From IMG/VR virus record IMGVR_UViG_3300048886_000466, positions 1 to 28,765 of that record: a stretch of DNA of 28,765 nt. One strand, 5' to 3'. Made by a program: the position numbers and the translations under genes. The DNA is from a virus. Lineage: Duplodnaviria; Caudoviricetes. A model generated the notes under the pieces. That model searched no databases. It was given only the letters and a program-made list of their open reading frames with translations, and was not told the origin of the DNA. This document shows positions 925-27,903 of the stretch, in pieces (position 1 is the first letter of the stretch; every line of letters begins with the position of its first letter).

Positions 925-1470
925 TTGGACTGGTTAGTTCAGCACCAGAAATTCTTAACACGCGTTACTCCACTACTTATCAGCATAGCTTTCATTGCAA
1001 CAGGGCTTGTGCTATGGGCTACCGGAACATTCAACATCGAGACGGTTGGTTACGCCAGCATCTGGCTCCTCTCATTCATCGCTGCTGCCCTGATTTTCCT
1101 GCCCGTCAGTGCATTAGCAGCCGTCTGTGTGGCAGTTGCAGTTGACCTGAACCCCTTTGTGGTTGCTGTCGTTGCTGCGTCTGCCGAATCCATAGGTGAA
1201 CTGACAGGCTATCTTGCTGGCATGGGTGGTAAGTCCTTCTTTGAACATAAGCGTTTCTACCTACGGTTCAAGAACCTGTTCGAGAAATACTCATTCCTCT
1301 GCTTGCTCATTGGCAGTGCCATCCCGAACCCACTCTTCGATGTCCTTGGCGTGGCGGCTGGCAGCATACTCTACCCTGTCCGTAAATTTTTATTGCTGGT
1401 CTTCATCGGCAAAACCTTAAAATTTACATGGGTAGGATTAAGTTGCTACTACGGGGCAACATGGTTCTAG
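925..1470 (+). CDS. DedA/VTT (SNARE-associated Golgi protein-like) family membrane protein
   Basis: Multi-TM, 181 aa. Motifs 'IFLPV', 'NPFVVAVVAASAESIGELTGYLAG', 'IPNPLFDVLGVAAG...YPVRKFLLLVFIGKTLK'. TTG start with GGGAG 7 nt upstream. Confidence 0.88.
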   Translation: MDWLVQHQKFLTRVTPLLISIAFIATGLVLWATGTFNIETVGYASIWLLSFIAAALIFLPVSALAAVCVAVAVDLNPFVVAVVAASAESIGELTGYLAGMGGKSFFEHKRFYLRFKNLFEKYSFLCLLIGSAIPNPLFDVLGVAAGSILYPVRKFLLLVFIGKTLKFTWVGLSCYYGATWF

Positions 1471-1556
1471 GCACGTTCCATCTGGCTTACATATAGTTTT
1501 CTTGCTGCGTAAGCTGCGGCAATGGCGACCAATGTAAAAGCAAATAACCGTTTCAT
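1467..1556 (-). CDS. 29-aa single-pass membrane peptide MKRLFAFTLVAIAAAYAARKLYVSQMERA (not in ORF track)
   Basis: ATGA overlap with the tatC stop; GAGGA SD just upstream. It exactly fills the tatC-dedA gap, and its TAG overlaps the dedA TAG in a CTAG palindrome. Basic-hydrophobic-basic layout. Confidence 0.7.
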   Translation of the reverse strand: MKRLFAFTLVAIAAAYAARKLYVSQMERA

Positions 1557-2431
1557 TCTTTCCTCATAACTTTTCTGTATGCCCAGCGAGCCTTCACTAC
1601 AGGGTAGCCTATAACAAACCGTATCTTTCGCAAGAGCCACCCTATTCCAGCCCTGATCTTCTTGACGAACAGATAGTCTCCCTGCTCAGGCCATGCCACC
1701 CAGCTTAAGAATAAACCCACCTCGTAAAGCACGATGATCGGGACAGCAAGTAATGTCTGGTTGAATACATCAAACGTGGGGGTGATGATGGCACTAAGCA
1801 CAAATGCTGCCACCGGAACATACTTCCGTAATCCACGTAAGCGCAGGTAGGAAACGATCTGCATCTTGGCGAGCAGGTACATGGTGATAGGTAGTTCAAA
1901 GACTACGCCCAGCCAGAACACCATCGCTGTTAATAACGAAATGTATTCATCAAGGACTATGACAGGGACGGCAACGCCTGTACCGAAGTTAAGAAGGAAG
2001 GCTAGACCAGTAGGAAGCAGGACGAAGTATGCGAACGCAGCACCGAATAAAAAACAGACGACGGTAGCTGGTAGGAATACAACCAGAAACCGCCGTTGCT
2101 GAGGAGGAACCAGCGAACTAAATAAAGTGTAGACACTGATTACTAAAACAGGGAGAGATGCAATGACTCCCCCTCTAATAGCAAGCTGTATGGTTGCCCC
2201 CATCATCGACGTAGGCGAAGTGAATATAGGAAGGTTGCCCTCGAAGGGAGAAAGATTCCCCCCTGCAGGAGCAAGCAGTAAACCAAAGACTGCTTCCCTG
2301 TAATACCACGTACCGCCAGCACCAGCCCCGAATGTAAAAAGAATCCAGAACAGTCGTATTCTTATGCGTCGCCCTAATATGCGCGAAGCAGTACGACCGA
2401 CTTCACCTATGCCCCTGTACGGGGCAAGCAT
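1553..2431 (-). CDS. tatC: TatC-family (twin-arginine translocase) membrane protein, divergent in the signal-binding half
   Basis: About six TM segments. Motifs R.RL, LLAP, 'GAAFAYFVLLP', 'GVVFELP', 'RKYVPVAAFVLSAIITPTFDVFNQTLLAVPIIVLYEVG' (cf. E. coli TPPDVFSQTLLAIP..LFEIG). AAGGA SD; TAATG coupling to the upstream ORF. Confidence 0.92.
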   Translation of the reverse strand: MLAPYRGIGEVGRTASRILGRRIRIRLFWILFTFGAGAGGTWYYREAVFGLLLAPAGGNLSPFEGNLPIFTSPTSMMGATIQLAIRGGVIASLPVLVISVYTLFSSLVPPQQRRFLVVFLPATVVCFLFGAAFAYFVLLPTGLAFLLNFGTGVAVPVIVLDEYISLLTAMVFWLGVVFELPITMYLLAKMQIVSYLRLRGLRKYVPVAAFVLSAIITPTFDVFNQTLLAVPIIVLYEVGLFLSWVAWPEQGDYLFVKKIRAGIGWLLRKIRFVIGYPVVKARWAYRKVMRKE

Positions 2432-2556
2432 TAAGTGTCCTTCTTAGGCTTTGCTTTAGAGTTGCCTCTTCGTAACCAAGTTGCCATCCAGCCACCGCCA
2501 CCCAAAAGGACGACAGTAGAGGCAGCGACGATGCCTACTAAAACCCATTCATTCAT
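2431..2556 (-). CDS. 41-aa single-pass membrane protein MNEWVLVGIVAASTVVLLGGGGWMATWLRRGNSKAKPKKDT, TatA/TatB-like architecture (not in ORF track)
   Basis: AAGGA SD upstream; its TAA overlaps the tatC ATG (TAATG). Glu, short TM, Gly hinge, then a basic amphipathic tail. The ORF is well supported; the TatA/B assignment is inference. Confidence 0.7.
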   Translation of the reverse strand: MNEWVLVGIVAASTVVLLGGGGWMATWLRRGNSKAKPKKDT

Positions 2557-2571
2557 AGGAGTATTCCTTGT

Positions 2572-2829
2572 TTATTGTTGCTCTTCTTCAGTGAGAGCAT
2601 CTATCTTGTTTTTTGCAACTAAGTTACTCAGTCGCAATCGTCTAACTTGCTTTGTAAAATCACGCATCCCAGCTTTTGCTGTAACTGCTGCCCAAGTATT
2701 TACAAACACAATCCCCCGTGCAGCACTGGTGGCTGAATCAACTGCACCTCCAACCAAGAAGTCAAAGGCGCGAACAACTATAAACGAGGCCGCAATCGAC
2801 CCTAGTGTATAGCCCAGCAACCAGCCCAT
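2572..2829 (-). CDS. 85-aa membrane protein; N-terminal TM plus basic amphipathic helix and acidic tail (TatA-like candidate)
   Basis: TAATG coupling at 2829. Hydrophobic N-terminus; segment AKAGMRDFTKQV resembles the TatA amphipathic-helix pattern G-I-R-E-F-K-K; ends TEEEQQ. Confidence 0.7.
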   Translation of the reverse strand: MGWLLGYTLGSIAASFIVVRAFDFLVGGAVDSATSAARGIVFVNTWAAVTAKAGMRDFTKQVRRLRLSNLVAKNKIDALTEEEQQ

Positions 2830-3170
2830 TACTTATCCTTCTTCTTCTTACCTTCAAGAGACTCTAACAATCCATCGACCATCGAAAGTCCTTGAGATAT
2901 GTACGATGTTACCATGTTCTGAATTGGTCGTAACCCTGCGGCTTTTGCTCGATCTTTAAGTTCGGCAAGAGACTCGACAAGTTCACTGGGGCTTATCCCA
3001 TCCCGTCCCTCGACAGTCAGCAGAGGCTTCTCTTCAACGATCACCTCTTCTACTACCGGAGCCTCTTCTACTACGGCTTCTTTTACAGCAGTAGGACTCT
3101 CAACGGTAGGGTGTACCCTACCTTCAGGGGTATCTGTTGGGGGCTTTGGTTTGAAGTCATTGATTTCCAT
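2829..3170 (-). CDS. Hypothetical protein; acidic Pro/Glu/Val-rich N-terminal half, amphipathic C-terminal helix
   Basis: 113 aa; TAATG coupled at both ends; VVEE repeats; C-terminal KKKKDK. Confidence 0.75.
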   Translation of the reverse strand: MEINDFKPKPPTDTPEGRVHPTVESPTAVKEAVVEEAPVVEEVIVEEKPLLTVEGRDGISPSELVESLAELKDRAKAAGLRPIQNMVTSYISQGLSMVDGLLESLEGKKKKDK

Positions 3171-3259: not shown

Positions 3260-3559
3260 CTAGATGGTTATTGCCAGATAGTTAATCACATCCCCGTTAG
3301 TTCCAGCGTCTGCATAGAAATCGGAGAGGTCACCGGGAGCCTCTTCAGCATCATGTCTGAAAGTAAAATCTCTGGTAGTTCCCTTTGTTATGGAAGGAGT
3401 GTTGTTGCTGGCTACAGTGGAGTCACCAACGTAGAGACTGCCCGTGTTGGCAGACGGTACGTCCAGCAGCAGGTACTTGATAGGGGTTGGAACCGTGGTG
3501 AACCGGACTGCAGTTCCTGCAGATGCTACGGTCACCCTACCATGGATAATCCCTGCCAT
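3260..3559 (-). CDS. Small beta-rich virion-associated protein
   Basis: 99 aa; 'G..TV..AGTAV', 'NTGSLYVGDSTV', 'DFYADA.TNGD.I.Y' pattern typical of small phage beta-sandwich structural proteins; TAATG coupling. Confidence 0.7.
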   Translation of the reverse strand: MAGIIHGRVTVASAGTAVRFTTVPTPIKYLLLDVPSANTGSLYVGDSTVASNNTPSITKGTTRDFTFRHDAEEAPGDLSDFYADAGTNGDVINYLAITI

Positions 3560-3723
3560 TACTTCTTAGCCTTCTTCGTTGCTTCCTGCTCAATGTTCTG
3601 AGTCATCTCAGCCCTCATCCTAGAAGCAGCAGCTATAAGTAACTCCTTATTGAAAATAGGGTCTACAGTCCGAACTACGTCTACGTCCTGCATTGTTATC
3701 GTTATGTTGTTCTCTGTGGTCAT
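3559..3723 (-). CDS. Small hypothetical protein (54 aa; start re-assigned from 3753 to 3723)
   Basis: The ATG at 3723 overlaps the upstream TGA (ATGA); the stop overlaps the next ATG (TAATG). Confidence 0.65.
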   Translation of the reverse strand: MTTENNITITMQDVDVVRTVDPIFNKELLIAAASRMRAEMTQNIEQEATKKAKK

Positions 3724-4106
3724 GGTAAATCTAATACCGTCCTGTTCGTCCATGATGTTGTATCTTCATCCCAAGTATAAGCCACATAAAAAGTTGGCGG
3801 GTCTGCATCCTCAAGTCCAGCGTCGCTAGGCACAGGTATCGGGGCTTCCCATCTCCATGTAGAAGTATTCAAAACCCATGAAGGGTATTCCCCGGACGGA
3901 TAATAAAAAGCATCGTTGGTCGAATCGTACTTCATGGTTTTAACAGCGTGGTCAAATTTTCCAGTGGACTGAACCCAGTTGGTGTCCTCTCCAACTAGTT
4001 TCTTGCAAAAGGCTATGCCTGTTGCTTCATCAGGGGCATCGCTGTCATCAACTACTATTACGTTAATAACAATGTTGTTGTCGTCAAGACGTGCAAAATC
4101 TACCAT
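3720..4106 (-). CDS. Phage tail-fibre-associated protein ('M..FA.LD.NN.V..VIVV' type)
   Basis: 128 aa; motifs FARLDDNNIVINVIVV, YD...DAFY.P, YPSWVLN..TW.WEAPIP.P, Y.WDE....W. Directly follows a Gly-rich gene, the pairing I recall from aquatic phages. Confidence 0.75.
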   Translation of the reverse strand: MVDFARLDDNNIVINVIVVDDSDAPDEATGIAFCKKLVGEDTNWVQSTGKFDHAVKTMKYDSTNDAFYYPSGEYPSWVLNTSTWRWEAPIPVPSDAGLEDADPPTFYVAYTWDEDTTSWTNRTVLDLP

Positions 4107-4948
4107 TATTGATACTGATACTTTATTATCACTAAACCAGAGCCACCAGAGCCACCACCGCCACCAAATTGCGATCCACCTCCGCCTCCTCCGCCTAAGC
4201 CATTAGTTCCAGAGGAACCGTCACTACCACTGCTGGTTCCGTGGGGAGTAGTCCCGCCAGTACCACCACCTCCAGCACCACCCGATCTCCCGCCGATGCC
4301 CAACCAAGCCTGATAACCACCAGCACCGCCCCCACCGCCATAAGTTACTGAACTGCCTGAAAGACTATTAGCAGCACCATCCGCACCGTTGCTATGAGCA
4401 TCAGCAGCATCAGTACCGGAACCACCGCCTCCAGCACCTAGCGTGTAAACAGCAGGTTGTCCATCGCCGCCATCTCCACCAGTACCATCTCCTGAACCCC
4501 CGGTATTAGTCCCAGAACCTCCATTACCGCCTCCACCACTTCCATTGGTGGCATTACCATTTTCACCACCACCGCCACCAGCACCCCCAGCACCAGAAGT
4601 AAGCCCAAGGGCTTCTGTGTCGCCATTACTTCCACCAACAGTGATTGTGTGATCTCCGAAGGTAGCTACTGCAAGACCTGAAGCGGTGAGTAATCCTCCG
4701 CCACCACCGCCACCGCCACAGCCGGGATAACCACGAGAGCCACCACTGCCGCCACCACCGATCATCAGGTATTCCACAGTGTTATTAACCCCCGGATTGG
4801 TAACAGTAAACGTCCCTGAACTTGTAAAGGTATGAATTTTGTAGTCACCAGAGGTTGAGACAGAACCGCCAGTAGCAACCTTGTAAGCCGTTAGTGATAC
4901 GCCACCACCTGAGCCAAATCCTAGTACCTGATATCCAAATCTACTCAT
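4106..4948 (-). CDS. Glycine-rich-domain tail/fibre protein
   Basis: 280 aa; ATGG...GDYKIHTFTSSGTF, VEYLMIGGGGSGG, GGGGGGG, YGGGGGAG, GGSGLVIIKY; N-terminal FGYQVLGFG. Confidence 0.85.
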   Translation of the reverse strand: MSRFGYQVLGFGSGGGVSLTAYKVATGGSVSTSGDYKIHTFTSSGTFTVTNPGVNNTVEYLMIGGGGSGGSRGYPGCGGGGGGGGLLTASGLAVATFGDHTITVGGSNGDTEALGLTSGAGGAGGGGGENGNATNGSGGGGNGGSGTNTGGSGDGTGGDGGDGQPAVYTLGAGGGGSGTDAADAHSNGADGAANSLSGSSVTYGGGGGAGGYQAWLGIGGRSGGAGGGGTGGTTPHGTSSGSDGSSGTNGLGGGGGGGSQFGGGGGSGGSGLVIIKYQYQ

Positions 4949-7888
4949 TTAAGCATCCGTTGAAGCCTCCGTTGTGTAGTGAAGTTTGATCCCTATAAGC
5001 CGGGCATCTGCATTGTAGTCATCGGAGCCAGTCTGTCGAGACAATTCAAAGAATACTAATTCATTATCGGCTGCTGCTGTAATGGTTACGTTTCCACTTG
5101 TCGCACTAATGTTCAAATCTTCTACCGTGCCACTATGCGCTTTAGCTGTGGCATTGGTTGGGGTAGGGAAAGCTGTATCAATTAAATCCCCATCTCCCAT
5201 AGAAATACCCGCTAACCCCCAACATACAGTACCAGTGTTAGTGCTTGATGCTGTCCAATATGCCGTAAAGGTGACAGTTCCTGCATCCCATGACTTAGGA
5301 AATACTACTTGGAATTGTGCTTTTTCTACGCTAGACGTATCAAAATCTAAAACTCGTAGATCGGGACGATCAGCCGTTGTTTCAACAGACTCAATATCAG
5401 CACAACCACCTGACTCAGTTGGAGTCATGGCAGCAGCAGGAATCCACATATCTTCTAAGCCAACCTTTTTGACTACGCTTCCTTCAACTGAAAGTTCACC
5501 ACTGCTACCACTCAACGTAGTGGCTGTTGCGTGTCCTAGTTCAATCGTTGAGCCTGTTGTTAGCACACCAGATACATTCAAGGTTCCGTTCAGGTCTACC
5601 GCTGTGGCGGTAAGGTCAATCTCATCTGTTGCTGCGATTGATAAGACTGTTCCTGAAGTACCTTGAATAAACTGGGTGGCATCATTGAACATAAGTTTGT
5701 TTGTACTGTTCAACGTGATACCAACATCATCAGTGTGAGTCAGGGTAGCGTCACCATCTGCACCAAAAGCAAGTACAGCAGAGTCTGATGTAAGTTTCAG
5801 ATCATCGGCAACGGTTACAGCACCTGTGCCGTTAGGGGCTATTGCTATGTCCCCATTCGACCCGTCAGTTATTGTGATCGTTCCGGTGGTAGTGTTCCCG
5901 GTTGCAAGAGTTAAATCAAAGTTTCCGCTGGACTTGAGAGTACCCGCAGCAGCCCCGGTTCCCACTACAACCGTACCGTTTATGGCGACTTCACCATTCG
6001 TGGAGTTAGTTATAGTCTCGTCATTCTCTAAGATAATTCCTGTAGAGCCAGTGATATCTATACTTGTAGAAAATACCCCGGCAGTCCCTGTAATAGCAGC
6101 AGCTACAAAGGGAGCAGCGGTAAAGTTAGCTAAGTTCCCTGTTGAAGTTGCCGTTGAAGTAGTCGTTCCGACTGTAAAACCAGTAGCACTTTCGTCCCAC
6201 ATAAAGATTGCATTATTACCTGTGGAACCACGCTCAATAAGAAGCCCTGAGTCATTCGAGTTACTACCATCAGCCACCCCATTATTTAACTCAATCAGAG
6301 AATCTTTAACCGTTGTGTTTGTTGTATCAACAGTTGTTGTAGTTCCATTGACGGTTAGGTTTCCAGCAACAGTTACAGCACCAGCAAAAGCAGCCGAAAG
6401 ATCATCACTAAGAGTCAGGGCAGTCGCTAGGGAGTTTAGTGAACTACCCGACCCTGCTGCATTAGCAGTTTGGAATACGATGTCCCCGCCTGCTCCAGAG
6501 CCTTTACCCTGACCGCCTTGGAACGTTAATGCCCCACCAGCTATATTGTTAGTCGTTCCAGCCGTTGTAGCACCTGCCGACATAGTTAATGCTGTACCAG
6601 CAGCATCATGGGCAGAAGCGGTTGGAATTAGTTTATTGCTGCTGAATAAAAGAGTGCTTTCTGCTTGGATATTTCCAGTTCCATTACCCGTGAGTACAGC
6701 ATTTGTTAGGAGAGTTGAAACACCAGTTCCGCCATGTTCGACACCTACATCTGTACCTTCCCAAACACCAGTTGCAATAGTTCCCAACACGGTAATCGAA
6801 CCCCATGCAATATCAGTACCGTCAGATTTCAAAACGGTATTCGCGCTACCCGCAGCTAAAGCAGTAGTGGCAGCAGAGGCGTTACCATAAATTACGCTCC
6901 CTCTTGCTAGTCCATCCAGAACATTTAGTTCTGCTGCGGTAGAGGAAACTGGCGTACTTGCCAGAACAAGCTGTCCGTCTGGAACAACTATTCTGGCTGC
7001 ACCGTTCAGGATCAGATCGTCTTCAGAGGCATCCCATGTCATATTTGCAGAAGCTGCATCCCCATAGAAAATTACGTCATGGCCTGCGTCATCCACTCCA
7101 ACAGTCAGTGTCCCTCTTTGGACAACACCGTCAGCAGACGTATCCCATAGCCAGTACCTACTGGCTGTATCCCCGAATAACTTTACATCGTAGCCAGTAT
7201 CATCTACTCCGACACTCAACGTACCTTTTACAACCGTAGTCGTTATATCTGTACCGTCACCAATACCGATGTTCAGCGTTCTTGTTCCTGCTGTAGCGAT
7301 ATTGATTGTCTGGTCTACGTTGTCGTTACCAATACTCAGCGCACCACCGCTGGAATTAAGTTCTATTACTCCACTTGCATCAAGGGCAATGGAAGCCGTG
7401 TTTGCTGTTGTTATTGCACGAGCATCACTGATGCTGATAATAGGATTGCCGCCCTCTTGTAGGGCTACTCCACCTGTGCCGTTGAGGGTTAAAGCCCCTG
7501 CACTGGTTGACCATGTAGCAGCAGCGGCAGATGTGATAGTAAGTGCGCCAGCAGATGTTGCAAGGGTTCCTGCATCTGTAAGGGTAATGTCACCCTCAAG
7601 GAACAAGTCCTGCCACGCTGCTGAAGCAGAGCCTAAGTCATATGAATCGTCACTGGCAGGTATAAGGTGACCTGTCGGAGTCCACGTAGTGTCCCAAGCA
7701 GGAATTCCACCAGTTACGGTAAGAACTGCTCCCGTTGAACCAATGCCTAGTCGAGAAAGCTGCGTACTGTTCGTAGCGTAAAGAATGTCTCCCGTAGCTT
7801 GGGAGTCAAATACGTGACCAGCCGTACTCTCATACTCAGTTTGAGATAATTCAGAACCTACCACTTTATGTTTGAATTCGTTAGCCAT
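4949..7888 (-). CDS. Tail fibre / receptor-binding protein
   Basis: 979 aa, G/A/S/T-rich and modular. 'GDILYA....LSRLGIG' and 'V.HGGTG' fibre motifs; 'GNLTVNGTTTTVDT....VKD.LIEL' segment; internal 37-aa repeat; globular C-terminal domain. Confidence 0.85.
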   Translation of the reverse strand: MANEFKHKVVGSELSQTEYESTAGHVFDSQATGDILYATNSTQLSRLGIGSTGAVLTVTGGIPAWDTTWTPTGHLIPASDDSYDLGSASAAWQDLFLEGDITLTDAGTLATSAGALTITSAAAATWSTSAGALTLNGTGGVALQEGGNPIISISDARAITTANTASIALDASGVIELNSSGGALSIGNDNVDQTINIATAGTRTLNIGIGDGTDITTTVVKGTLSVGVDDTGYDVKLFGDTASRYWLWDTSADGVVQRGTLTVGVDDAGHDVIFYGDAASANMTWDASEDDLILNGAARIVVPDGQLVLASTPVSSTAAELNVLDGLARGSVIYGNASAATTALAAGSANTVLKSDGTDIAWGSITVLGTIATGVWEGTDVGVEHGGTGVSTLLTNAVLTGNGTGNIQAESTLLFSSNKLIPTASAHDAAGTALTMSAGATTAGTTNNIAGGALTFQGGQGKGSGAGGDIVFQTANAAGSGSSLNSLATALTLSDDLSAAFAGAVTVAGNLTVNGTTTTVDTTNTTVKDSLIELNNGVADGSNSNDSGLLIERGSTGNNAIFMWDESATGFTVGTTTSTATSTGNLANFTAAPFVAAAITGTAGVFSTSIDITGSTGIILENDETITNSTNGEVAINGTVVVGTGAAAGTLKSSGNFDLTLATGNTTTGTITITDGSNGDIAIAPNGTGAVTVADDLKLTSDSAVLAFGADGDATLTHTDDVGITLNSTNKLMFNDATQFIQGTSGTVLSIAATDEIDLTATAVDLNGTLNVSGVLTTGSTIELGHATATTLSGSSGELSVEGSVVKKVGLEDMWIPAAAMTPTESGGCADIESVETTADRPDLRVLDFDTSSVEKAQFQVVFPKSWDAGTVTFTAYWTASSTNTGTVCWGLAGISMGDGDLIDTAFPTPTNATAKAHSGTVEDLNISATSGNVTITAAADNELVFFELSRQTGSDDYNADARLIGIKLHYTTEASTDA
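7020..7225 (-). repeat. Two tandem 37-aa (111-nt period) repeats in the tail fibre
   Basis: GTLSVGVDDTGYDVKLFGDTASRYWLWDTSAD versus GTLTVGVDDAGHDVIFYGDAASANMTWDASED. Confidence 0.85.
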
Positions 7889-7897
7889 ACCGCTTCC

Positions 7898-10369
7898 TTA
7901 GCTGGTTAAAACCTCTGTGAACTCTAAGTCAAATACCCTGACTTGGTCAATCGGAGTACCCCTCAAAGGGTCTACTCTTCCCGATATAGTCCGGTCTAAA
8001 TATTTTAGCGTAGCGTTCAAACTTTCCCCATCAGGCGTGACAAGCTGAACGAACGGTTGCTGCCTCAAAGTCGTCAGCTTACTGATATCCGCAGACCTGA
8101 GGGTAGTCTGTGGAACACGTCTCAATTGTAATGTCCGCTTGTCTCCCAGACGAACCGATGCCTTGAACCTTCGTACATCTGTCTGGTTCCAGACCGTATT
8201 CAACACTATCGAAGTGACTGTTGGCGGTTCGTCACTGGTGGAATCCGAAGCAAAACTAAGCCTGAACCTGATTCTCTTGAAGGTCACAGGCGTAGATGTG
8301 ACAGAGGCTTTTACTTCCTGTGGAGAGGTATCAAAGACACCGTCATCACCCCAGACTGTCCATCCACCTGCATCATTATCTGTCGCGTCATCCTTCTTGT
8401 AATAGACGGTGACATACTTCTCTCCAGAAGCAAAGTTTCGAGACCCTAGAGTCAGCTTACTTGCAGCCTTTTCAACATCGGGATAGTTGAAGTCAATCCA
8501 CGGGGTGTAAAACTCTCCTGTCTTCCTGACAGCAATAGTCGCAGAGCGTCGCGGATTCTCATTGTCCCTTGGAATCTTCAGTCTAAAAATTCTAGGCGCA
8601 TCTTCATCTGATGCGTCAATGGTGTTATCTGTAAATGATCCCATTGCAAACAGGGACGAATTAGTTCCGTCATCGTATCTACCTATCTGGTCAATCTGAG
8701 ACAGGGTAAACGAACTGATCGTATGCACAATAACGTCCCTGTCAAAGTCAGCAGCATCCTCAGGCTTCTGGCTCTTGATAGTGAGCAACCTGACCGAAGT
8801 AGAAATACCAGCCGTACTGAAGTTGAAAGGGAAGGTATACGGAAACGAACTCAATGTATTTGCAGCGTTGTCAGCAAGTGCAATGAATACGTTAGACCTG
8901 TCCTGCGCTATTGCAGAGACCTCACCACCAAATCCCTTGAATGCCGACGCTGTAAAGATATGCGTCAACTCGCTCCAGTCATGTATCGGTGGCTGACCTG
9001 TTGGAGATATACGCCAGAAAGTCTGCTGACCACCTGATGCCCATATAGCACCACCACGTCCTATCGCCCGACGGAAGTTATTGGCTGAAGGGAAGAAGTT
9101 GGAGTCAGGCTCTATATCCCTGAACCTGTTGATGCGCCTGTCGTAAACATATAAGCCATCTTCCCTGCCGACGTAGGCTGTTCCAGCACCGGAGATCAGG
9201 CTGGTAGTAGTTCTGTCAATATCTCCTACCTGTATCTCAGCACCCCAGTTAGCAGTGTCAGATGGGTCTACGGTAAGTGATGCCTGATTAAGACGGGTCT
9301 TCATTAAAGCCCAGTCACCACGAGCATTCAGGACACGCGCTAACTTATTTGCAATGCGTGAGTTCCCTGAGTTGGTCGAAGGGTTAGAGAAGGTAGCCCC
9401 GTCAGCACTGAGAAGATAGTTGTTGTTATCTCCCCTGCCTACAATTAGATTGCCTTCATAATTCTCAAGTCCAGTAATTTCATCACTGCCATCAAGATAT
9501 ACAGGGAGCCATGCGTCATTGCTCTCGTCCCACTTGATTACAGAACGCCCCATCGAAGCGTAATAATTGCCCTCAAACTCTATTGGTCTTGATTTAAAGG
9601 CACTGCCGCCTGCAAGAATTACAGCAATATCGTCAACCCTGAACACGTCATCATCTACAGAGAGCGTGAAAGTAAACTGTACTGCCGACGTACTGGCGTG
9701 AAGTGTCCTGACAGCTTTCAAGAGAGTCCAGTCTGAAGATGTAGACGTGGAACTGTCATCGCTTCCTACCCCGTCTGCAATCGTAGCCTTGATATTGCCT
9801 GAGCCAGATACACGTTTAGCATAAGCAATAAGAGTTATTTGCCTGCTGGCGAGAACCGAATCTGTTCCAAGGTAATTCTGGGTACAGGTTCCACCTGCAG
9901 AAGTGGCGGCTATATTGAGAGAGTAAGAACCTGATCGAGCATCAGAGTTCACAGTAACAGTGGTATTGGAACCGTTAGTCCACCCAGTTGTCGCGCCTGT
10001 CTCTAATCTTCCGTTCTGAACGATAGCGTCTACTTCGTTTTCCTCATACCCCAGAACTAACTCATCATCGAACATGGCAAGCACACCGTCCGTGTAGCCA
10101 TACTTCGGAAAGTTAACAAGGTCTGTAAAGCGTGACGCACCAAACCCAAGATGCCAATCGTTTTGAGAAACAACACGACCGAACTCAGGAGACTGGGCCG
10201 CATAGTTTACGTCTCCCTGTGGCTGCGGAGGCGGCGTTGGAGAGATGATTTCCTCCTCCCATCCACCGGGACGGTTTGGAGCGTCTCTCCAGAGCGACAG
10301 TCGCACCTTATTAGTGCTGCCATCAGCATTAGCTACGGTTATATCTGCGTTTTTACCTGCGGTAGCCAT
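7898..10369 (-). CDS. Putative tail nozzle / tubular-protein-B-like beta-propeller protein with an inserted CBM4/9-like domain
   Basis: 823 aa; lies between the adaptor-like gene and the fibre. 'QNDWHLGFG' N-terminal motif; propeller-like strands; 'GEFYTPWIDF.YPDVEK' and 'KRIRFRL......PPTV.SIVL' C-terminal domain; NGRLE..W...ARSGSYSL..W....VDDI insert. Confidence 0.6.
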   Translation of the reverse strand: MATAGKNADITVANADGSTNKVRLSLWRDAPNRPGGWEEEIISPTPPPQPQGDVNYAAQSPEFGRVVSQNDWHLGFGASRFTDLVNFPKYGYTDGVLAMFDDELVLGYEENEVDAIVQNGRLETGATTGWTNGSNTTVTVNSDARSGSYSLNIAATSAGGTCTQNYLGTDSVLASRQITLIAYAKRVSGSGNIKATIADGVGSDDSSTSTSSDWTLLKAVRTLHASTSAVQFTFTLSVDDDVFRVDDIAVILAGGSAFKSRPIEFEGNYYASMGRSVIKWDESNDAWLPVYLDGSDEITGLENYEGNLIVGRGDNNNYLLSADGATFSNPSTNSGNSRIANKLARVLNARGDWALMKTRLNQASLTVDPSDTANWGAEIQVGDIDRTTTSLISGAGTAYVGREDGLYVYDRRINRFRDIEPDSNFFPSANNFRRAIGRGGAIWASGGQQTFWRISPTGQPPIHDWSELTHIFTASAFKGFGGEVSAIAQDRSNVFIALADNAANTLSSFPYTFPFNFSTAGISTSVRLLTIKSQKPEDAADFDRDVIVHTISSFTLSQIDQIGRYDDGTNSSLFAMGSFTDNTIDASDEDAPRIFRLKIPRDNENPRRSATIAVRKTGEFYTPWIDFNYPDVEKAASKLTLGSRNFASGEKYVTVYYKKDDATDNDAGGWTVWGDDGVFDTSPQEVKASVTSTPVTFKRIRFRLSFASDSTSDEPPTVTSIVLNTVWNQTDVRRFKASVRLGDKRTLQLRRVPQTTLRSADISKLTTLRQQPFVQLVTPDGESLNATLKYLDRTISGRVDPLRGTPIDQVRVFDLEFTEVLTS

Positions 10370-11664
10370 TAATACGCTGGAACCTTATACATAGACATGG
10401 CTGACATTGCGCCAGCACCTTCGTCAACACGATTCTTGTAATGCCTCCACCTGCGCTGTGCAGCGTTGAGACCTTCTTCAGTGAACTGGTCGATATCACC
10501 CTGCAAGAAACTGGTTGCAGCATAGGCATACAACCTCTGTAATTGCTGACCGTCAATCTCCATGGTGTCACTGCCTGAAGAGAGACTCGACAGCAATCCC
10601 ATCCCAACGATCACAAGCTGCTTGGATTCTGGAATGGTGTAAGGAATGATGATGTCGTCACCTTCCTCGCGCCAGTTAGAGATAGGCTGGGCATGTAATC
10701 TTGGAGATTCAGATGGGCCTGATACTGCTATAAGTTCATCTGCATATATAACTAGGGCAGTGCCTGATGTCGCGTGTACTCCAACCCGGACAGAAGACGA
10801 TACGTCCCCCAAGTTAGTAGATACGGTCAGACGTTCCCAACCACTTCCGCTGTGGGTAGAACCCGTAGTCGCACTCCCGCTGTCTACGCTTATTGCAGCA
10901 GATACACGGGAAGCAGTCTTACAGTAAACCCAGACCGATACGTTCAGTTCCTCACCGTCATATGCAGTAGGGCTGGCAAATGTCATGTAGGCAGTTCCCA
11001 GACTGGATGCGCCAACAACCATCTTGCCTGACTGATCTCCTGCAAAGACCATGTAGTTGTCAGGGGAAGTAGTCTCTTCCTCTGCTGTAAGCGTGATATT
11101 GCTGGTAGTCCAGTCAGTCGTTACCGTGCTGTTCTCGAAGTCACAGTTCAGGCTTCCGACTATATTGTCTCCATACCCTGAGGCATCTATTCGTTCCTCA
11201 ACATATATCTTTCTGACAAAGCCCTGCTGGATACTTGTTGGGCGAGCGTAGTTACGCTGCTCCGGGTGTCCGGTGTGAGTCCTGTCGTGAACCTTTTTAT
11301 AAAGGGAAGGGAATGCTTCCTGACGAGCATCATTCAGATGATCGGTAAGGATTGCAGGGTCGTACCTGTACAACTCAAAGTTCTTGGAGCCAGACTCTGC
11401 GGCAAGGCTTACTCCCCTGAGGTCTAATGCACCTGAAGAACCAGTGTGGTCTAAGACGCTGCGAGTAGTGCCATCATTCTCTGTGCCAAGAATTCGGGCA
11501 AAGGTATCGTTCAGGGTGTCATCGTCTTCAAAGTATGCGGTGAGACCCGTGGATATCAGAGCCGTACTCGTTGTGATATTCGTGGTGGTAGCAAAACTAC
11601 CTATGTACGCTCCCATGTAACGAGCAAACTGAGGAAGCATTGTATTCAGCGTAGTTGTGGTCAT
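10369..11664 (-). CDS. Putative head-tail adaptor (tubular-protein-A-like) with an inserted CBM4/9-like domain
   Basis: 431 aa; 'L.DHLNDA....FPSLYK' helix and a C-terminal helical 'LYAYAA..L' segment typical of adaptors; NCDFE..W...FAGDQS...VSVWV...GWERLTV...YADEL insert. Confidence 0.55.
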   Translation of the reverse strand: MTTTTLNTMLPQFARYMGAYIGSFATTTNITTSTALISTGLTAYFEDDDTLNDTFARILGTENDGTTRSVLDHTGSSGALDLRGVSLAAESGSKNFELYRYDPAILTDHLNDARQEAFPSLYKKVHDRTHTGHPEQRNYARPTSIQQGFVRKIYVEERIDASGYGDNIVGSLNCDFENSTVTTDWTTSNITLTAEEETTSPDNYMVFAGDQSGKMVVGASSLGTAYMTFASPTAYDGEELNVSVWVYCKTASRVSAAISVDSGSATTGSTHSGSGWERLTVSTNLGDVSSSVRVGVHATSGTALVIYADELIAVSGPSESPRLHAQPISNWREEGDDIIIPYTIPESKQLVIVGMGLLSSLSSGSDTMEIDGQQLQRLYAYAATSFLQGDIDQFTEEGLNAAQRRWRHYKNRVDEGAGAMSAMSMYKVPAY

Positions 11665-12143
11665 TACTCATCTTTCTGACGCTGTCTATCTTGATAACGC
11701 TCAAACAGATGACCGACTTCAGTGTCAGTCATTATTTTATTGTGTGTCGAAAGTAACCCTGTATCATCGTCTTCCTTCAGGTAACTCAAATCCCACAATC
11801 CGGTAGCCGGGTTATAAGACATGTTGGCAGCAGGGATATTCGACATGATCTTTTGGTTACGAACCTTCGCCCTGCGAACATCCTGATCTTGGTCAGCCTG
11901 CTCACGGGCAGCTTCATAAGCCCTGTCACCAGCCTTCGTGTCAGTGGACACTCTGGCAACCGTATCTGCTGTCATAAGGGCAAGAGATTCCTGATCTCCA
12001 TACCCCAACATGCCATCAGGCACGACTACAGTTCCATCAATACGCCTACCGTCCTTGGTAACAATACTGCTGGGGGCTTCAACCTCTGCCCAGCTAAGTT
12101 CAGGGGTAGTCTTATTGATGATCTTGTCGTTTGCCTTAGCCAA
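11664..12143 (-). CDS. Hypothetical protein in the morphogenesis region
   Basis: 159 aa; TTG start overlapping the upstream stop; TAATG coupled downstream. Confidence 0.7.
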   Translation of the reverse strand: MAKANDKIINKTTPELSWAEVEAPSSIVTKDGRRIDGTVVVPDGMLGYGDQESLALMTADTVARVSTDTKAGDRAYEAAREQADQDQDVRRAKVRNQKIMSNIPAANMSYNPATGLWDLSYLKEDDDTGLLSTHNKIMTDTEVGHLFERYQDRQRQKDE

Positions 12144-12966
12144 CGGTATTCAATCCTGTTCCTGCGTTTGCAACCAGATCAGCAGTACCTGTGTCGGTAA
12201 CAAACTCAATCGAACCAAATCCACCGAATCCTCTTCGAGCCATCTGCTTCCAAGGTTGTCCGCCTACTACTACCGCACCGTATCTGATCGAACGGTTTAG
12301 TGGGTGAATTGAATTCAAGGTTGTAGAAGAGTCGAGGGCAGCACTTACTTTGAGGCGAACCCAGTACAGTGGGGTATTGAATACCTGACCCGTACCTGCA
12401 AATGTACCGTCCCAACTTTTCTCTGTTTCGATAATAGTCCTGAGGGTATTTGACTCCCAGTCAGAAGGCTCTGTCCACGTTACGCTCGCGTCCTGAGCAA
12501 GGGCTGCACCGCCTGAAGCAGTACCATCCGTCTCTGCAATATCGCTCCACGCAGAGCCGTCCCAGTAATCGCCTGTCATCAACGACGCTGTTCCATTTAC
12601 ATCATCTACATCAACAGCCAACCCACGAATAGGAACAGCACACCCAACAAATAAAGCATCACCATTAGCGAGCGTACCCTGAGAGGACATCGTCACATCT
12701 GTAGAAGCGTCATCGTCTTGAGCGTTCTCTGAATAGTCAGTCCAACTAGCACCTGCATCCTGTGTCTTAAGGACACTGACCCAAGGGTTTATTGCAAACT
12801 GGACTACAGTAGCACTGGAACCTGCATTGTGTGCTTCCAGACTTACGAACTGTGTGTTAGTAGGTAAGCCTACCGTCTTTGCGGAGTTTGTTGCGGCAAG
12901 TCCGCCAGCGGTATAACCAGCACCACGAACTTCATAGTTGACTGCTGGATTCGTTTGAGTAGGCAT
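12136..12966 (-). CDS. Virion structural protein, beta-sandwich type
   Basis: 276 aa; GAGG SD; 'YWDGSAW....DGT', 'VTWTEPSDW', 'LYWVRL' motifs seen in phage structural/surface proteins. Confidence 0.7.
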   Translation of the reverse strand: MPTQTNPAVNYEVRGAGYTAGGLAATNSAKTVGLPTNTQFVSLEAHNAGSSATVVQFAINPWVSVLKTQDAGASWTDYSENAQDDDASTDVTMSSQGTLANGDALFVGCAVPIRGLAVDVDDVNGTASLMTGDYWDGSAWSDIAETDGTASGGAALAQDASVTWTEPSDWESNTLRTIIETEKSWDGTFAGTGQVFNTPLYWVRLKVSAALDSSTTLNSIHPLNRSIRYGAVVVGGQPWKQMARRGFGGFGSIEFVTDTGTADLVANAGTGLNTVG

Positions 12967-12993
12967 CTATGACCTCTTTCTCTTGATTTATGC

Positions 12994-13012
12994 CGGGGGG
13001 ACAAGCCCCCCG
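12994..13012 (-). other. Intergenic G/C hairpin (CGGGGGG-5 nt-CCCCCCG), possible mRNA pausing, processing or stabilising element
   Basis: Perfect 7-bp stem just after the stop at 13022; no U-tract follows on the coding strand. Confidence 0.5.
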
Positions 13013-13021
13013 ACCTTATTA

Positions 13022-13435
13022 CTAACTGCTAACAATATACAACGTAACTGCTGTGGAGGATGTGCGCCTCCAAACCAATACTGCTGCTTCATTAGTTAGA
13101 ACAGTATTTCCTGTGTCAGCCACAGTTACCCCTGTTCCCCCAGCGAAGGTAGCCGTCTGGTCGCCGTCGTTGATGTAATAACTGGTAATGGACTCGTTGT
13201 CCTTACCCAGAGGTACGTTAGCGATGATGTTCGCTGCGGTATCTGTCGTAACTGTTCCACCGCCAGTAGCGGATGTGTGAACGTTGATCCCAGCAAGAAT
13301 ATCTGCTGCTGCCAGCGTCATGTGCCGTGAGTCATCGTCTACGGCTGTAAGAATTTCTGTGTTTCGACCTGAGCGAGTCGTTACGGCGGCATCGCCTACA
13401 AACTCGATTGGGTCTATTGCATTCATCTTAGGCAT
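13022..13435 (-). CDS. Putative capsid decoration / minor head protein
   Basis: 137 aa; AGGAGG SD; 'TLAAADILAGI', 'TTDTAANII', 'T.AGGTGVT', 'RRTSSTAVTLY' pattern of small beta-rich head proteins; close to the MCP. Confidence 0.6.
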   Translation of the reverse strand: MPKMNAIDPIEFVGDAAVTTRSGRNTEILTAVDDDSRHMTLAAADILAGINVHTSATGGGTVTTDTAANIIANVPLGKDNESITSYYINDGDQTATFAGGTGVTVADTGNTVLTNEAAVLVWRRTSSTAVTLYIVSS

Positions 13436-13479
13436 AATTGCCTCCTGTGGCGTACCGCTTGTTTGAAACGCCTGCGCCT

Positions 13480-13517
13480 AGTAAAAGTAAGTTGGGGTGG
13501 AGCCGAAGCCCCACCCC
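13480..13517 (-). terminator. Probable intrinsic (likely leaky) terminator after the capsid gene cluster
   Basis: Minus strand GGGGTGGGGC-TTCG-GCTCCACCCC (10-bp stem with one G-U, cUUCGg tetraloop) followed by AACTTACTTTTACT. Confidence 0.6.
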
Positions 13518-13528
13518 TGAGAATCTGA

Positions 13529-13852
13529 TTACGCTTCTGTAATACCAACAACTTGCCAGCCAGCAGCGGCTGAAACGCCGTTGCAGACTAGAAGAGCAGA
13601 TTGGTTCTGGTCAATCACAACGACCGTCGTAGACGAGTCGCTCTGCTTAACCGTGATTGCTTCCGCAGCATCTGCTGCATTAGTAATCATACATTCGCCA
13701 CCCTGAGTGCCAGTACCTGATGGCATATCAACCTCACGCGCAGACCCACCGGGGTCAAGGTTCTGATGATATGCCGATGCGGCAGTCAGTGTCGCGTTAT
13801 CCGCCAGAGTCTCGGTGTTCGCATCTTTAATGCGAGGAATCCCGATGCTCAT
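13529..13852 (-). CDS. Putative capsid decoration / head fibre-like protein
   Basis: 107 aa; 'LDPGGSAR.V.MP', 'I.NAADAAEAITVK', 'IDQNQSALLVCNG...W'; TAATG coupling. Confidence 0.6.
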   Translation of the reverse strand: MSIGIPRIKDANTETLADNATLTAASAYHQNLDPGGSAREVDMPSGTGTQGGECMITNAADAAEAITVKQSDSSTTVVVIDQNQSALLVCNGVSAAAGWQVVGITEA

Positions 13853-14274
13853 TACGAGCCTCCGATGTCTAAACTAGTTTGTTTGGTATTAGCTTTTTTA
13901 GGCTGAGTCTTGCGCGACCCTGCCTGCTTACCCCTCTTACCAAGGTTCTTGCGTTCTTCAGAGGCTTCAATCGCAGACTCATAGTCTTTGAGAGCCAACG
14001 GAAGGAAACCGCGCTCTAGTGCGGTAGCGAGTTGACCGGGGCGCACGTTGTGGATAACAGGTAAGTAAGTTCCATCTTTTTGGGGATGGAGGAGATATGC
14101 GGAATCCGCAGAGACAAAGTCCAAACTCTTAAGGGCTTCCTTAATGTCGCCAAAACGACCCTCGAACTTATCCAGCACCTCTGCAAAATTTGCATTGGAG
14201 CGCGCACGTTGGCGGGTTTCAATCGCCCATGCTTCTAAAATAAGATCGGGTGGACGGTCTAATTGAGTTACCAC
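13852..14274 (-). CDS. Hypothetical protein with Lys/Arg-rich C-terminus
   Basis: 140 aa; GTG start immediately after the upstream stop; tail RKNLGKRGKQAGSRKTQPKK. Confidence 0.7.
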   Translation of the reverse strand: MVTQLDRPPDLILEAWAIETRQRARSNANFAEVLDKFEGRFGDIKEALKSLDFVSADSAYLLHPQKDGTYLPVIHNVRPGQLATALERGFLPLALKDYESAIEASEERKNLGKRGKQAGSRKTQPKKANTKQTSLDIGGS

Positions 14275-14679
14275 TTATCTACCCCTTCTCTTTCCTCGTT
14301 TACCACGTTTGCGCCCGCGGCTACTTTTAACGCCGGGAGTCGCAGCTAACGACTCCGTTTTGTCGGGTAATTCCGCAGGCAAGGTCTCTGAATACGCAGG
14401 TGTTGAACCTCCGGGGGCATGATGGATAAGACCCTGTTGTCCCGGTATCTGTACCCATACAGCCCTTTCACCTTCTTTAACAGGACGAACTTTAGCCAGC
14501 ATGTACTGCTTGTCAGCAAGCGGAACACGAATCTGGTGTCCGTCCAGCGTGTCATACAGGAAGCAATAGTCGTCTTGTTTGTCGTCTACTGCGATCCCGT
14601 AATCTTCGCTCTGGCTCACGACGTTATTTCCTCGAAAGGATTGTGCGTCTCGCCATTGTTGCATAGGTGAAGTTGTCAT
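14275..14679 (-). CDS. Hypothetical protein with Arg-rich C-terminus
   Basis: 134 aa; TAATG coupled to the MCP; ends SSRGRKRGKRGKRRGR. Confidence 0.75.
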   Translation of the reverse strand: MTTSPMQQWRDAQSFRGNNVVSQSEDYGIAVDDKQDDYCFLYDTLDGHQIRVPLADKQYMLAKVRPVKEGERAVWVQIPGQQGLIHHAPGGSTPAYSETLPAELPDKTESLAATPGVKSSRGRKRGKRGKRRGR

Positions 14680-15587
14680 TAGCTAATAGCATCTGTCGCT
14701 GAATAGACCTCAACAGCCCACTCATCAACAATTTCAGTTTCGCCCCAAGTACCGACAGTAACAATGTCAGTACCACGAGAACGAATGTCACGGTCGTCTT
14801 CAGCGTCGATCTCTTTTGCCATACAAAGTGCAAAAGCCTGAGGAGCAAAGACACAGCCCTTGGAGTCACCAGACCCATCACGGGAGATAACACCAGAGGA
14901 GTAAATCTGTACTCCGAATCGAGTTTCCTGACCACGCCAGTAGTTGTTGATGACATCGTCGGATGGGCCACTTGGGCGCGCACCAGCAGCCATAGTGGTA
15001 GAACCACCTGCCTGCAAACCAGAGTCATCTTCTACCAGACGACGTATCTGTTCCGGGTGTAATACAGCATTCACTCGACCACCCGGAGATGGGCCAAATG
15101 ATGCGTTGTTGTCGGTCTGCATATATGAAACTGCGCCAGCAAGTTGCCTAAAACCGAAGTTAGAGCCAGCACCCGGCATTGAAAGCCCGGTAACTGAGTC
15201 AAAGAGGGTGACGAGGTCAGACTCACGGAGACGACCAAGTGCAAGACCCTGCATCATTCCAACTTCAGCGAGAACATCTTCACTGTTTTCACGCTGTAAT
15301 ACATCAGACACGAAAGTCAGAACACCATGCTCAGAAGCGGTGACGTTACGAACAGTCACTGAAACTTGTTGAGCGTTCTGAATAGTTACACCCTCAGTAA
15401 GGGCAGCAGCAGTGAGACGACCCCACAATGGGATGTTCTTCTGCTTCTCGCCTTTAGCAAGGTCGTATCGTGATACCAAGCTGGCGGTTGGGCCAGCAGG
15501 TTCCACGTTAGCAATCGCGTCTGCAATAACAGTTGCAGCCATACTCGACAGACTCGACGAACTGGATAGTGTCAGACCTTCAGCCAT
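14679..15587 (-). CDS. Major capsid protein (HK97-fold inferred)
   Basis: 302 aa; follows the scaffold; GAGGA SD. 'NIP.WG.L.AAALTEG' E-loop-like segment, 'VSD.L', long backbone helix, 'VLHPEQ...L', 'FGVQIY.S', 'E.DRD...RGT.IV....WG'. Confidence 0.85.
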   Translation of the reverse strand: MAEGLTLSSSSSLSSMAATVIADAIANVEPAGPTASLVSRYDLAKGEKQKNIPLWGRLTAAALTEGVTIQNAQQVSVTVRNVTASEHGVLTFVSDVLQRENSEDVLAEVGMMQGLALGRLRESDLVTLFDSVTGLSMPGAGSNFGFRQLAGAVSYMQTDNNASFGPSPGGRVNAVLHPEQIRRLVEDDSGLQAGGSTTMAAGARPSGPSDDVINNYWRGQETRFGVQIYSSGVISRDGSGDSKGCVFAPQAFALCMAKEIDAEDDRDIRSRGTDIVTVGTWGETEIVDEWAVEVYSATDAIS

Positions 15588-15602
15588 GACTTTCCTCTTT
15601 CA

Positions 15603-16370
15603 TTATCGTCGCAACCACCCTTTCTCAGAGCCGATGCTTCGATACTCGTCGATGTTTATGTCGCCACGCTGAAATGCTTCCACGGCTTCTGACTTTGTCT
15701 CTATAGGAGATGTAGTCTGCGAAGGAGCCTCTTGCGTGGTTGGTGGCGGAGTCGCGGGTGCAGGAGTTGCTGCTGGAGCAGGAGCGGGAGCAGTTTTCAG
15801 GCGACTGATGTTGTTCTGCGCGAGAGTGTAATACTGCTCTGCAGTCATACCAGTCATTGCGCCTTCCCAAATACGGTTGTCCAGATGTGTCATCTGAAGC
15901 CCGTTCTGGGTAATTAACTGTGTCACGTTGTTGGCAAGGTTCAGTTTTTCATCTACAGAAAGTTCCTGTTGCTGCTGTTGCTGCTGTTGGGGAGCATCTG
16001 CTGGTGTCTGAGCCTTATTTCTCCAATATTCAACCTGTTCCTCTGGTTCCAACTGCTCAATTTGTGCCTGTTCCATTTTTGAGGTCAAATCCCTGAAGGG
16101 TTTTAATGCATCATCAACTCTGGAGTTCAGGTTGTCCTCAATCTGTTTCATTCGGTTCGCATTCCAATTGTTCTGCGTACCCTGATATTTATTGAAGACG
16201 TTTTCTATGTCACTAAGCGTTGGCCCTGAAGAAGCAGGAGCCTGTTCCGGTACTTTTTCCTGTACCTGTTCTTCTGCCTGAGCGGATTCATCCTGAGCAG
16301 CCAAAACTGTACTCGCTATTTCTTCCGCTGAATCTTGTGAAGCCGAAACTTCTTGTTTTTCGGTTGTCAT
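15603..16370 (-). CDS. Capsid scaffolding protein
   Basis: 255 aa; acidic and helical with poly-Q and PAPA linkers; short C-terminal helix pair (EAVEAFQRGDINIDEYR); directly upstream of the MCP. Confidence 0.7.
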   Translation of the reverse strand: MTTEKQEVSASQDSAEEIASTVLAAQDESAQAEEQVQEKVPEQAPASSGPTLSDIENVFNKYQGTQNNWNANRMKQIEDNLNSRVDDALKPFRDLTSKMEQAQIEQLEPEEQVEYWRNKAQTPADAPQQQQQQQQELSVDEKLNLANNVTQLITQNGLQMTHLDNRIWEGAMTGMTAEQYYTLAQNNISRLKTAPAPAPAATPAPATPPPTTQEAPSQTTSPIETKSEAVEAFQRGDINIDEYRSIGSEKGWLRR

Positions 16371-16436
16371 GGCCTAGACCTTACCCCTAGAGGTTGTTTA
16401 TATTCCCGATAAATTTACTAACTCCCGAAATAATAA

Positions 16437-23696: not shown

Positions 23697-23873
23697 TTAT
23701 ATACTCCCAAACGGGTTCATCGGACGACGTTGTTGCTTCTGCTTACCGCCCGGAGGGTCAATCTCTGCATCCTGAATCTGCTTCGGGATGGTCTCAAGGT
23801 ATCGTTTCGCGATCTCGTCAAATTGCTCAACAGCCTGTGTTATGACATTAGTTGGCTTGTTTTTCTTTGCCAC
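23697..23873 (-). CDS. 58-aa protein after the portal, MAKKNKPTNVITQAVEQFDEIAKRYLETIPKQIQDAEIDPPGGKQKQQRRPMNPFGSI (not in ORF track)
   Basis: GTG start overlaps the portal TAG (TAGTG); its TAA abuts the next ATG; fills the gap exactly. Confidence 0.75.
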   Translation of the reverse strand: MAKKNKPTNVITQAVEQFDEIAKRYLETIPKQIQDAEIDPPGGKQKQQRRPMNPFGSI

Positions 23874-25816: not shown

Positions 25817-25825
25817 AAACCGTTC

Positions 25826-27385: not shown

Positions 27386-27903
27386 TAACTAGCCTTGAAT
27401 GATGCAAGTCCTGAATCGTCGGATATGGGGTTTTCCACCTGCTCGGTATCCTCAGCCCATTTTGCGTGTGCTTCGATATCTCTTCGTTCCTGAAAGGGTT
27501 CTGCCATATCGAGCATTCCGTTTTTCTCAATGACATCCCTGTGGAAGTTTATGGCTTTAGGGTCTGCTTCCAGCATGGCATATGCTGCAAGTTCACCTTC
27601 CCTCATGTAGACGGTCTTCAACTGCGAGGTTGTCACTGCATGTTTCCAGCCTCTTTTTGCAGGATAGCCTTCATCGTCCCTGTAGGCTTCGAGTGCCTGC
27701 TCGAAAGTAGGGGTGGCCTTGATAAGTTGCTTTATGGATTCCCACTTCCATCCCCACACTTCAACCATGTCCTCGATGGCTACCTCAGACGATCCCCAAT
27801 CTTCAAGGCTGGCATATACCCGACGAAGTCTCCTAGGCCATTCCTTCCAGCAGGGAACAGAGCCAGTTACACGGGACGCAATTTTGTCATATCCATTTGC
27901 CAT
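27385..27903 (-). CDS. Putative terminase small subunit
   Basis: 172 aa; helical with an HTH-like N-terminal half; TAATG coupled to terL. The assignment rests on position. Confidence 0.55.
   Translation of the reverse strand: MANGYDKIASRVTGSVPCWKEWPRRLRRVYASLEDWGSSEVAIEDMVEVWGWKWESIKQLIKATPTFEQALEAYRDDEGYPAKRGWKHAVTTSQLKTVYMREGELAAYAMLEADPKAINFHRDVIEKNGMLDMAEPFQERRDIEAHAKWAEDTEQVENPISDDSGLASFKAS

Follow-up and report, generated by a model that had tools for sequence, protein, structure and literature searches.

Why would a tailed virus keep a TatC protein that has given up its twin-arginine recognition residues, and what could such a protein do at the end of a virion operon? The window in which this question arises is the whole stretch of DNA that was analysed, 28,765 bases making up a linear virus record (IMGVR_UViG_3300048886_000466) that is 68% complete and has terminase, capsid and RusA matches in Pfam/PHROG. 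An initial annotation, made from the letters alone, described the TatC as signal-blind, with the recognition residues replaced and the TatA/B-binding half conserved, and took this asymmetric loss to mean a new function rather than decay, either a substrate-independent TatA activator or a decoy that titrates host TatA/B. The relevant parts of the protein are as follows.

1553..2431, minus strand: TatC-family protein of 292 aa (PF00902), twin-arginine pocket replaced, TM4-TM6 core kept
2351..2386, minus strand: start of TM1, remodelled and basic, with S16, L19, G20 and R22 for L9, H12, L13 and E15; L27 (E. coli L20) kept
2090..2125, minus strand: TM2-TM3 loop, with L103, S106, V108, P109 and Q112 for F94, P97, L99, Y100 and E103
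1721..1897, minus strand: kept core with E179, T217, D221, Q225 and E237, the putative polar-cluster site for a TatA/B helix (site according to the available part of PMC13323110)
1556..1696, minus strand: basic (+9) amphipathic C-terminal extension, residues 246-292, dN/dS 0.275

The gene provides the only PF00902 match in the whole record, scoring 147.2 bits (cut-off 25.1) over profile positions 6-208 of 208, and its product finds Aquifex TatC structures with a phmmer E value of 4.5e-30. Against TIGR00945 it scores 131.5 bits, the cut-off being 132.7, and a basal pocket-dead relative, P0178, reaches 158.8. Alignment with MAFFT L-INS-i, using the E. coli TatC from locus L087 as the reference for residue pairs, reproduced every pair that had been drawn by eye: H12 to L19 (codon at 2375-2377), E15 to R22 (2366-2368), F94 to L103, P97 to S106, L99 to V108 and E103 to Q112 (2096-2098), with P48 matched by P55. 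It also revealed the replacement of L9 by S16, L13 by G20, Y100 by P109 and G182 by Q191. Residues kept include, in E. coli numbering with window positions in brackets, R17, R19, L20, Y126, Y154, G166, E170 (E179), P172, T208 (T217), P209, D211 (D221), Q215 (Q225), P221 and E227 (E237). A cryo-EM study from 2026 (PMC13323110; this and the other papers cited by accession or DOI are drawn on for the parts of their text that were available) assigns the central part in recognition to H12, E15, F94, Y100 and E103, and all five are replaced in the window TatC; the same study places the binding site for TatB E8 at T208/Q215.

These replacements do not come from a misregistered alignment, as aspartate or glutamate occurs at E. 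coli positions 11-20 in 2 of 163 clade rows and at positions 102-104 in 2 of 237, and no shift of register gives back E15 or E103. The protein's own GRRIRIRL was considered as a Tat signal and rejected, since it has no consensus phenylalanine and aligns to TM1. The C-terminal tail, basic and amphipathic here, is short or acidic in the aligned cellular TatCs, and in some members an extra hydrophobic segment lengthens this end of the protein (L107:53-556, L117:4971-5939). An AlphaFold model of the window TatC built from 28 rows was too poor for use or for a fold search (mean pLDDT 55.9, pTM 0.36).

Loss of the pocket extends across a clade. The best 120 of 919 matches to the window TatC are 70-94% identical to it, and a search with the C-terminal part of the protein added 120 listed rows. 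Four of these (P0228, P0234, P0235 and P0237, two of them on 1.4-Mb contigs) retain the pocket and were separated from the rest post hoc, once this had been noticed. Among the remaining 247 rows, many of which are near-copies or fragments, E15 is found in 0 of 164 that cover the position, E103 in 0/237, F94 in 24/237 and H12 in 16/163; on the other side of the protein T208 and D211 are each present in 244/244, E170 in 242/247 and Q215 in 185/244. An IQ-TREE analysis of 61 rows placed 48 on one branch (support 100/100, stem length 0.85), adjoining the four canonical, pocket-keeping proteins.

A deeper set was obtained by an index-free search of 50%-cluster representatives, and FastTree was run on 154 of its 162 rows after eight fragments were dropped. 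The pocket-dead clade holds 47 of the 154 (support 0.989) and keeps H12 in 1/30, E15 in 1/30, F94 in 3/44 and E103 in 2/47, against 95/100, 91/100, 97/106 and 91/107 outside it. Exceptions are three clade rows that keep one acid and six rows outside that have neither acid where covered; the representatives P0416, P0454, P0468 and P0478, which lie outside the viral clade, also have neither E15 nor E103. The TatA/B-side residues are relaxed in the deep clade (T208 35/47, E170 24/47, D211 43/47, E227 42/47), mostly through serine at T208 and glutamine at E170. The asymmetry first described for this protein thus stands for the window, where the pocket is replaced and the TatA/B half kept, but retention of that half is weaker in deep members.

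The substitutions are not a trait of the nearest cellular TatCs, which by the tree keep the pocket, and the double TatCs of Chloroflexota and Bacillota keep it as well (PMC13673990, section 11). GTDB genomes yielded 26 TatC loci at 26-42% identity and no close relative. Plasmid matches found with P0228 (35-38% identity) were of no value, INPHARED matches (14 records, at most 34% identity) looked like host DNA and were dropped, and a viral scan with the basal member P0221 gave no match. Of the TatC clusters listed in the Atlas, two are mainly viral and one is mostly archaeal.

Selection on the gene was estimated as pooled dN/dS over 39 distinct genes, using only pairs whose synonymous divergence lay between 0.05 and 0.55 (372 of 741); the pairs are not independent. 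Values were 0.130 for the whole of tatC, 0.069 for residues 16-27, 0.118 for residues 101-114 and 0.097 for residues 191-245, and the seven pocket positions gave 0.020. The replaced pocket residues are under strong purifying selection: the pocket was rebuilt and then held, and a value of 0.02 therefore does not describe decay. The N-terminal half is remodelled, but it is not under less constraint than the rest (0.07 and 0.12 for its two segments, against 0.10 for residues 191-245). The two pocket segments carry a mean net charge of +8.3 in the clade, compared with +3.75 in the nearest canonical proteins and +0.6 in other cellular rows.

The initial annotation overlooked that tatC is the last of four genes on the same strand, in the order c2, c3, a 41-aa gene and tatC. 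The cassette and its surroundings are these.

2431..2556, minus strand: 41-aa single-helix membrane protein with E3, a glycine hinge and a short basic helix; its stop overlaps the tatC start (TAATG)
2572..2829, minus strand: c3, 85-aa membrane protein with an N-terminal hydrophobic helix, a weak second hydrophobic segment and a basic tail; in frame
2829..3170, minus strand: c2, 113 aa, with a charged low-complexity N-terminus, C-terminal amphipathic helices and no transmembrane segment; its stop overlaps the c3 start
3260..27903, minus strand: virion operon (terminase, capsid, likely portal and tail genes), upstream of the cassette, which forms its end
925..1470, plus strand: VTT/DedA-family membrane gene (PF09335), convergent with tatC

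Fifty-two of the 67 clade loci have at least 650 bases upstream of tatC, and among these, with HMMs trained on some of the loci themselves, c2 was detected in 51 and c3 in 49, while the 41-aa gene was present in 51 and the full set of three in 48; the full set was found in 0 of 32 cellular tatC loci. The gene order is the same even in virus records with a TatC of only about 40% identity. Where loci have a long flank, large virion genes on the minus strand precede the cassette, and opposite-strand or unrelated genes lie on its far side. The claim of a new function rather than decay therefore gains support from three sides, namely purifying selection, clade-wide fixation and a conserved cassette. 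Variations on the arrangement include an HNH-like ORF, recognised by eye, between c3 and the small gene at L102:3998-4570, with c2 and c3 further upstream, and a 64.6-kb record (G012; L193, L194) that carries two distinct TatC cassettes separated by about 41 kb and may represent two joined phages.

The 41-aa protein resembles TatA and TatB weakly. E3 is present in at least 90% of rows (18 or 20 rows), as is G20 (20 rows), and one family member begins MFGMGPQELL, which is TatA-like. When its profile was compared by hhalign with TatA/B profiles taken from cellular loci, the probability was 56% for TatB (0 of 100 shuffles as high), 11% for TatA (1/100) and 49% for the two combined (0/100). PF02416 matched none of the 11 mini proteins scanned, the E. 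coli controls giving 55 bits for TatA and only 17.7 for TatB; the NCBIfam TatA/B models did not match the 41-aa protein, and it fell in no named Atlas cluster. With a local TatA/B profile the best family member ranked third of 1991 short ORFs (E 0.68), and the window copy lay outside the top 25. Taken together the protein is a probable, if unproven, derivative of TatA/B. Its helix is about four residues longer between the glutamate and the hinge than the short helix of TatA, which would argue against a TatA-type pore, and its amphipathic part is very short. In the TatBC complex the long helix of TatB clamps the body of the signal peptide (PMC13323110), so that, if the 41-aa protein is a TatA/B derivative, both halves of the signal clamp would be gone.

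The other two genes were ruled out as TatA/B homologues, with 37/100 shuffles as high for c2 and 8/100 for c3. In 45 of 54 loci, among them the window, c3 is in frame. In seven loci whose DNA is 61-97% identical, a CCCTTTT/C heptamer is followed by a -1 frame of 55-62 codons with a conserved C-terminus, and in L090 a TTTTTTA lies at roughly that position; conserved slippery heptamers of this -1 type occur in L066, L068-L070, L072, L073, L088 and L090, and two products are predicted from them, a long one and a short one with a single helix. Three divergent loci (L065:784, L192 and L193:1060) instead have TTT CGT at c3 codons 40-41 and a C-terminus in the +1 frame, a site which we take to resemble the shift site of influenza PA-X. 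The simplest reading of these arrangements is that programmed frameshifts would yield a short and a long c3 product. The c2 protein is net acidic in 12 of 16 members and basic or neutral in the other four.

Holin/antiholin cassettes consist of small membrane genes that end the late operon, with two products per gene and a basic C-terminus. The phage cassette would be alike in those features and differs in having no holin or endolysin family match and in being built around TatC. No endolysin or holin was found in the window (Pfam/PHROG, 23 and 26 ORFs), nor, by Pfam, among 58 ORFs of the complete relative G001 (the last 0.5 kb lying outside the scan), 65 of the complete G007, 46 of G002 and 43 of G008; this negative is weak, since Pfam matches are lacking for the majority of ORFs in these phages and a lysin may go unrecognised. 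No twin-arginine signal motif occurs among the ORFs of the window, G001, G002 or G007. Among records reached through the tail and likely portal genes, most of them fragments, TatC is present in 2 of 16, and in 2 of the 4 among them that are at least 90% complete; of the other two, G010 ends just before the slot. In the complete, TatC-less G023 the same slot is occupied by a hydrophobic protein of 49 aa, two further small membrane proteins and a membrane protein of 444 aa, and no lysin was found among the 30 ORFs scanned. This membrane-gene cluster (L195:4446-6287), whose 444-aa member shows several hydrophobic segments and weakly matches pectate lyases (E 0.016), is a second candidate exit module. 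With two of four near-complete relatives lacking TatC and other genes occupying the slot in G023, exchangeable membrane modules occupy the slot.

The explanation preferred here, with confidence just short of even, is that the cassette is a self-contained, cargo-independent membrane-breaching module built around a pocket-dead TatC and aiding virion release. The late position and the absence of a recognisable lysis cassette favour this reading; that the module is exchangeable counts against it, as does the lack of genomic context for most protein rows. The cassette would be expressed late, to judge from its strand and position. The E3 of the 41-aa protein may dock at T217/Q225, as TatB E8 does at T208/Q215, and its very short amphipathic helix would be unable to grip a signal peptide, in keeping with a TatC whose pocket is gone. 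In simulations, Tat cores reduce the thickness of the bilayer from 38 to 26 Å (PMC13323110), and a complex that keeps this property would breach the host membrane. The c3 protein, its frameshift isoforms and c2 could then serve as trigger, timer or pore-forming partner, like holin/antiholin pairs. A more specific version, held only tentatively and with rather less confidence, is that a tatA-tatC pair was captured, cargo recognition was erased on both proteins and two regulators were added, one of them recoded by frameshifts that are -1 or +1 depending on the lineage, so that an always-on Tat complex ruptures the membrane of a host that has no peptidoglycan.

Against the membrane-breaching explanation stands the finding that losing the pocket is by itself enough to turn off Tat in E. 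coli (PMC5577447, PMC10092561), and the proposal of a substrate-independent activator likewise does not follow from pocket loss by itself (PMC10092561). In E. coli the F94A/E103A change blocks assembly of TatA, and a TatB change such as F13Y restores substrate-independent assembly (PMC10092561); a partner altered and supplied by the phage could hold a constitutive assembled state on a pocket-dead TatC in the same way. Both mechanisms first suggested, activator and decoy, took host TatA/B to be the partner, but the phage encodes candidate partners of its own next door. The term signal-blind holds for twin arginines but may overstate the case, as hydrophobic signals can use a pocket-dead TatC (10.1101/135103).

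That last result also bears on an unlikely but substantial competitor, a private translocase or insertase in which the basic pocket would recognise a hydrophobic or acidic signal instead of an arginine one, carried by a phage protein such as c3, c2 or an envelope-degrading enzyme that escaped recognition, and would move that protein through or into the membrane. The replacement residues are the most constrained sites of the gene (dN/dS 0.02), as a new binding site would be; the rise in pocket charge from +3.75 in the nearest canonical proteins to +8.3, the acidity of c2 in 12/16 members, the bypass of the pocket by hydrophobic signals (10.1101/135103) and the retention, for the most part, of E170 and D211, which transport requires, all point the same way. 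Yet no cargo was found, c2 is basic or neutral in 4/16, and the partner lacks the long signal-clamping helix of TatBC (PMC13323110). Such a translocase could also be the lysis step, and to that extent it overlaps with the membrane-breaching explanation. An inhibitor or modulator of host Tat, which would join host TatC trimers or sequester host TatA/B and so block or rewire export, is decidedly improbable. TatC is an obligate oligomer (PMC5102672), the polar-cluster site and L20 are kept, and for a haloarchaeal TatCt without F94 and E103 a partnership with an intact TatC has been proposed (PMC13673990, section 11); but a decoy has no need of three co-conserved partners, the virion-operon position suggests late rather than early action, and single dominant-negative changes in TatC sit almost only in the periplasmic cap, with no titration of TatB (PMC5102672), which also weakens the suggestion of a decoy titrating TatA/B.

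A membrane scaffold or some other late or lysogenic role, such as superinfection exclusion, virion assembly at the membrane or lipid handling with the DedA gene, is given little weight. A VTT/DedA gene adjoins tatC in 33 clustered loci and the slot in G023 holds other membrane proteins, but the gene is a neighbour in the close lineage only, being absent from the ORFs listed for the distant cassettes L101, L102, L104, L106 and L117, and direct support was not found. Barely credible is an ordinary working auxiliary TatC or a decaying host gene: the Pfam match is full-length, and E103 survives in two deep clade rows and E15 in one, but H12, E15, F94 and E103 have almost disappeared from the clade (Y100 is missing as well, though this position varies in cells), and a dN/dS of 0.13 rules out decay.

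Comparison with known systems helps to place the membrane-breaching cassette. With canonical TatC and TatABC it shares the six-helix family match, E170, T208, D211, Q215 and E227, and a small single-helix gene directly upstream; it departs from them in the replacement of H12, E15, F94, Y100, E103 and G182, in the basic amphipathic tail, in a partner without a full amphipathic helix, in c2 and c3, which bear no TatA/B likeness, and in its viral location at the end of a virion operon. Pocket-dead TatCs are already known from haloarchaea (PMC13673990) and from Naegleria mitochondria (PMC6251230). The 14-helix haloarchaeal TatCt is likewise retained in the absence of F94 and E103 (PMC13673990, section 11), but it is a chromosomal fused double TatC beside an intact TatC, whereas the phage protein is a single 292-aa copy with partners of its own and no intact TatC in the window. 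The TatC-only system of Naegleria mitochondria also has F94 replaced, and its protein does not complement E. coli; according to the available text (PMC6251230) it has lost E170 and has no TatA, whereas E170 is kept in the near clade of the phage protein and a candidate partner is present. The E. coli combination of TatB F13Y with TatC F94A/E103A resembles the phage case in its pocket-dead TatC, but it is a laboratory mutant (PMC10092561), and no equivalent change was found in the phage partner.

A bacterial host is indicated by a sigma-70 region-4 gene in G002 and by D211, which is at the bacterial position (PMC13673990). Members of SAR202/Dehalococcoidia, suggested as hosts in the initial annotation, mostly have no peptidoglycan genes (10.1101/2021.08.23.457424) and would fit, a wall-less host being an assumption. 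The only viral TatC found in print is a single figure label in the available part of PMC10564846, on one of two circular marine viruses; the 39.7-kb virus there is tied by k-mers to Porticoccus, which would not fit. The literature covered, which leaves out most subscription papers, describes neither this cassette nor any pocket-dead TatC from a virus.

It is debated how Tat can breach a membrane when it has no fixed channel, and how phages exit without a recognisable endolysin is an open question. The phage TatC cassette touches on both, as it separates recognition from membrane breaching, with the assembly and voltage-linked residues kept and small partners of its own. If the more specific version given above is true, the cassette would be a natural always-on Tat complex and a direct test of the membrane-thinning model. 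The case is also a caution against treating viral tatC annotations from marine viromes as functional auxiliary export genes.

Several further observations concern the surroundings of the cassette. Contigs from RNA libraries cover parts of it at low depth in 4/4 runs, with shares of at most 0.12; contigs do not equate to transcription, and they were not counted. The window's VTT/DedA gene (925-1470, plus strand) has at least 120 relatives at 78-98% identity. A small unnamed protein, its likeness judged by eye, recurs near the slot with or without TatC (L001:7580-7867, L088:7589-7813, L195:4213-4446). In G007, a sugar-modification cluster with a methyltransferase, an epimerase, a cytidylyltransferase and NeuB lies among the virion genes (L108:3269-8954).
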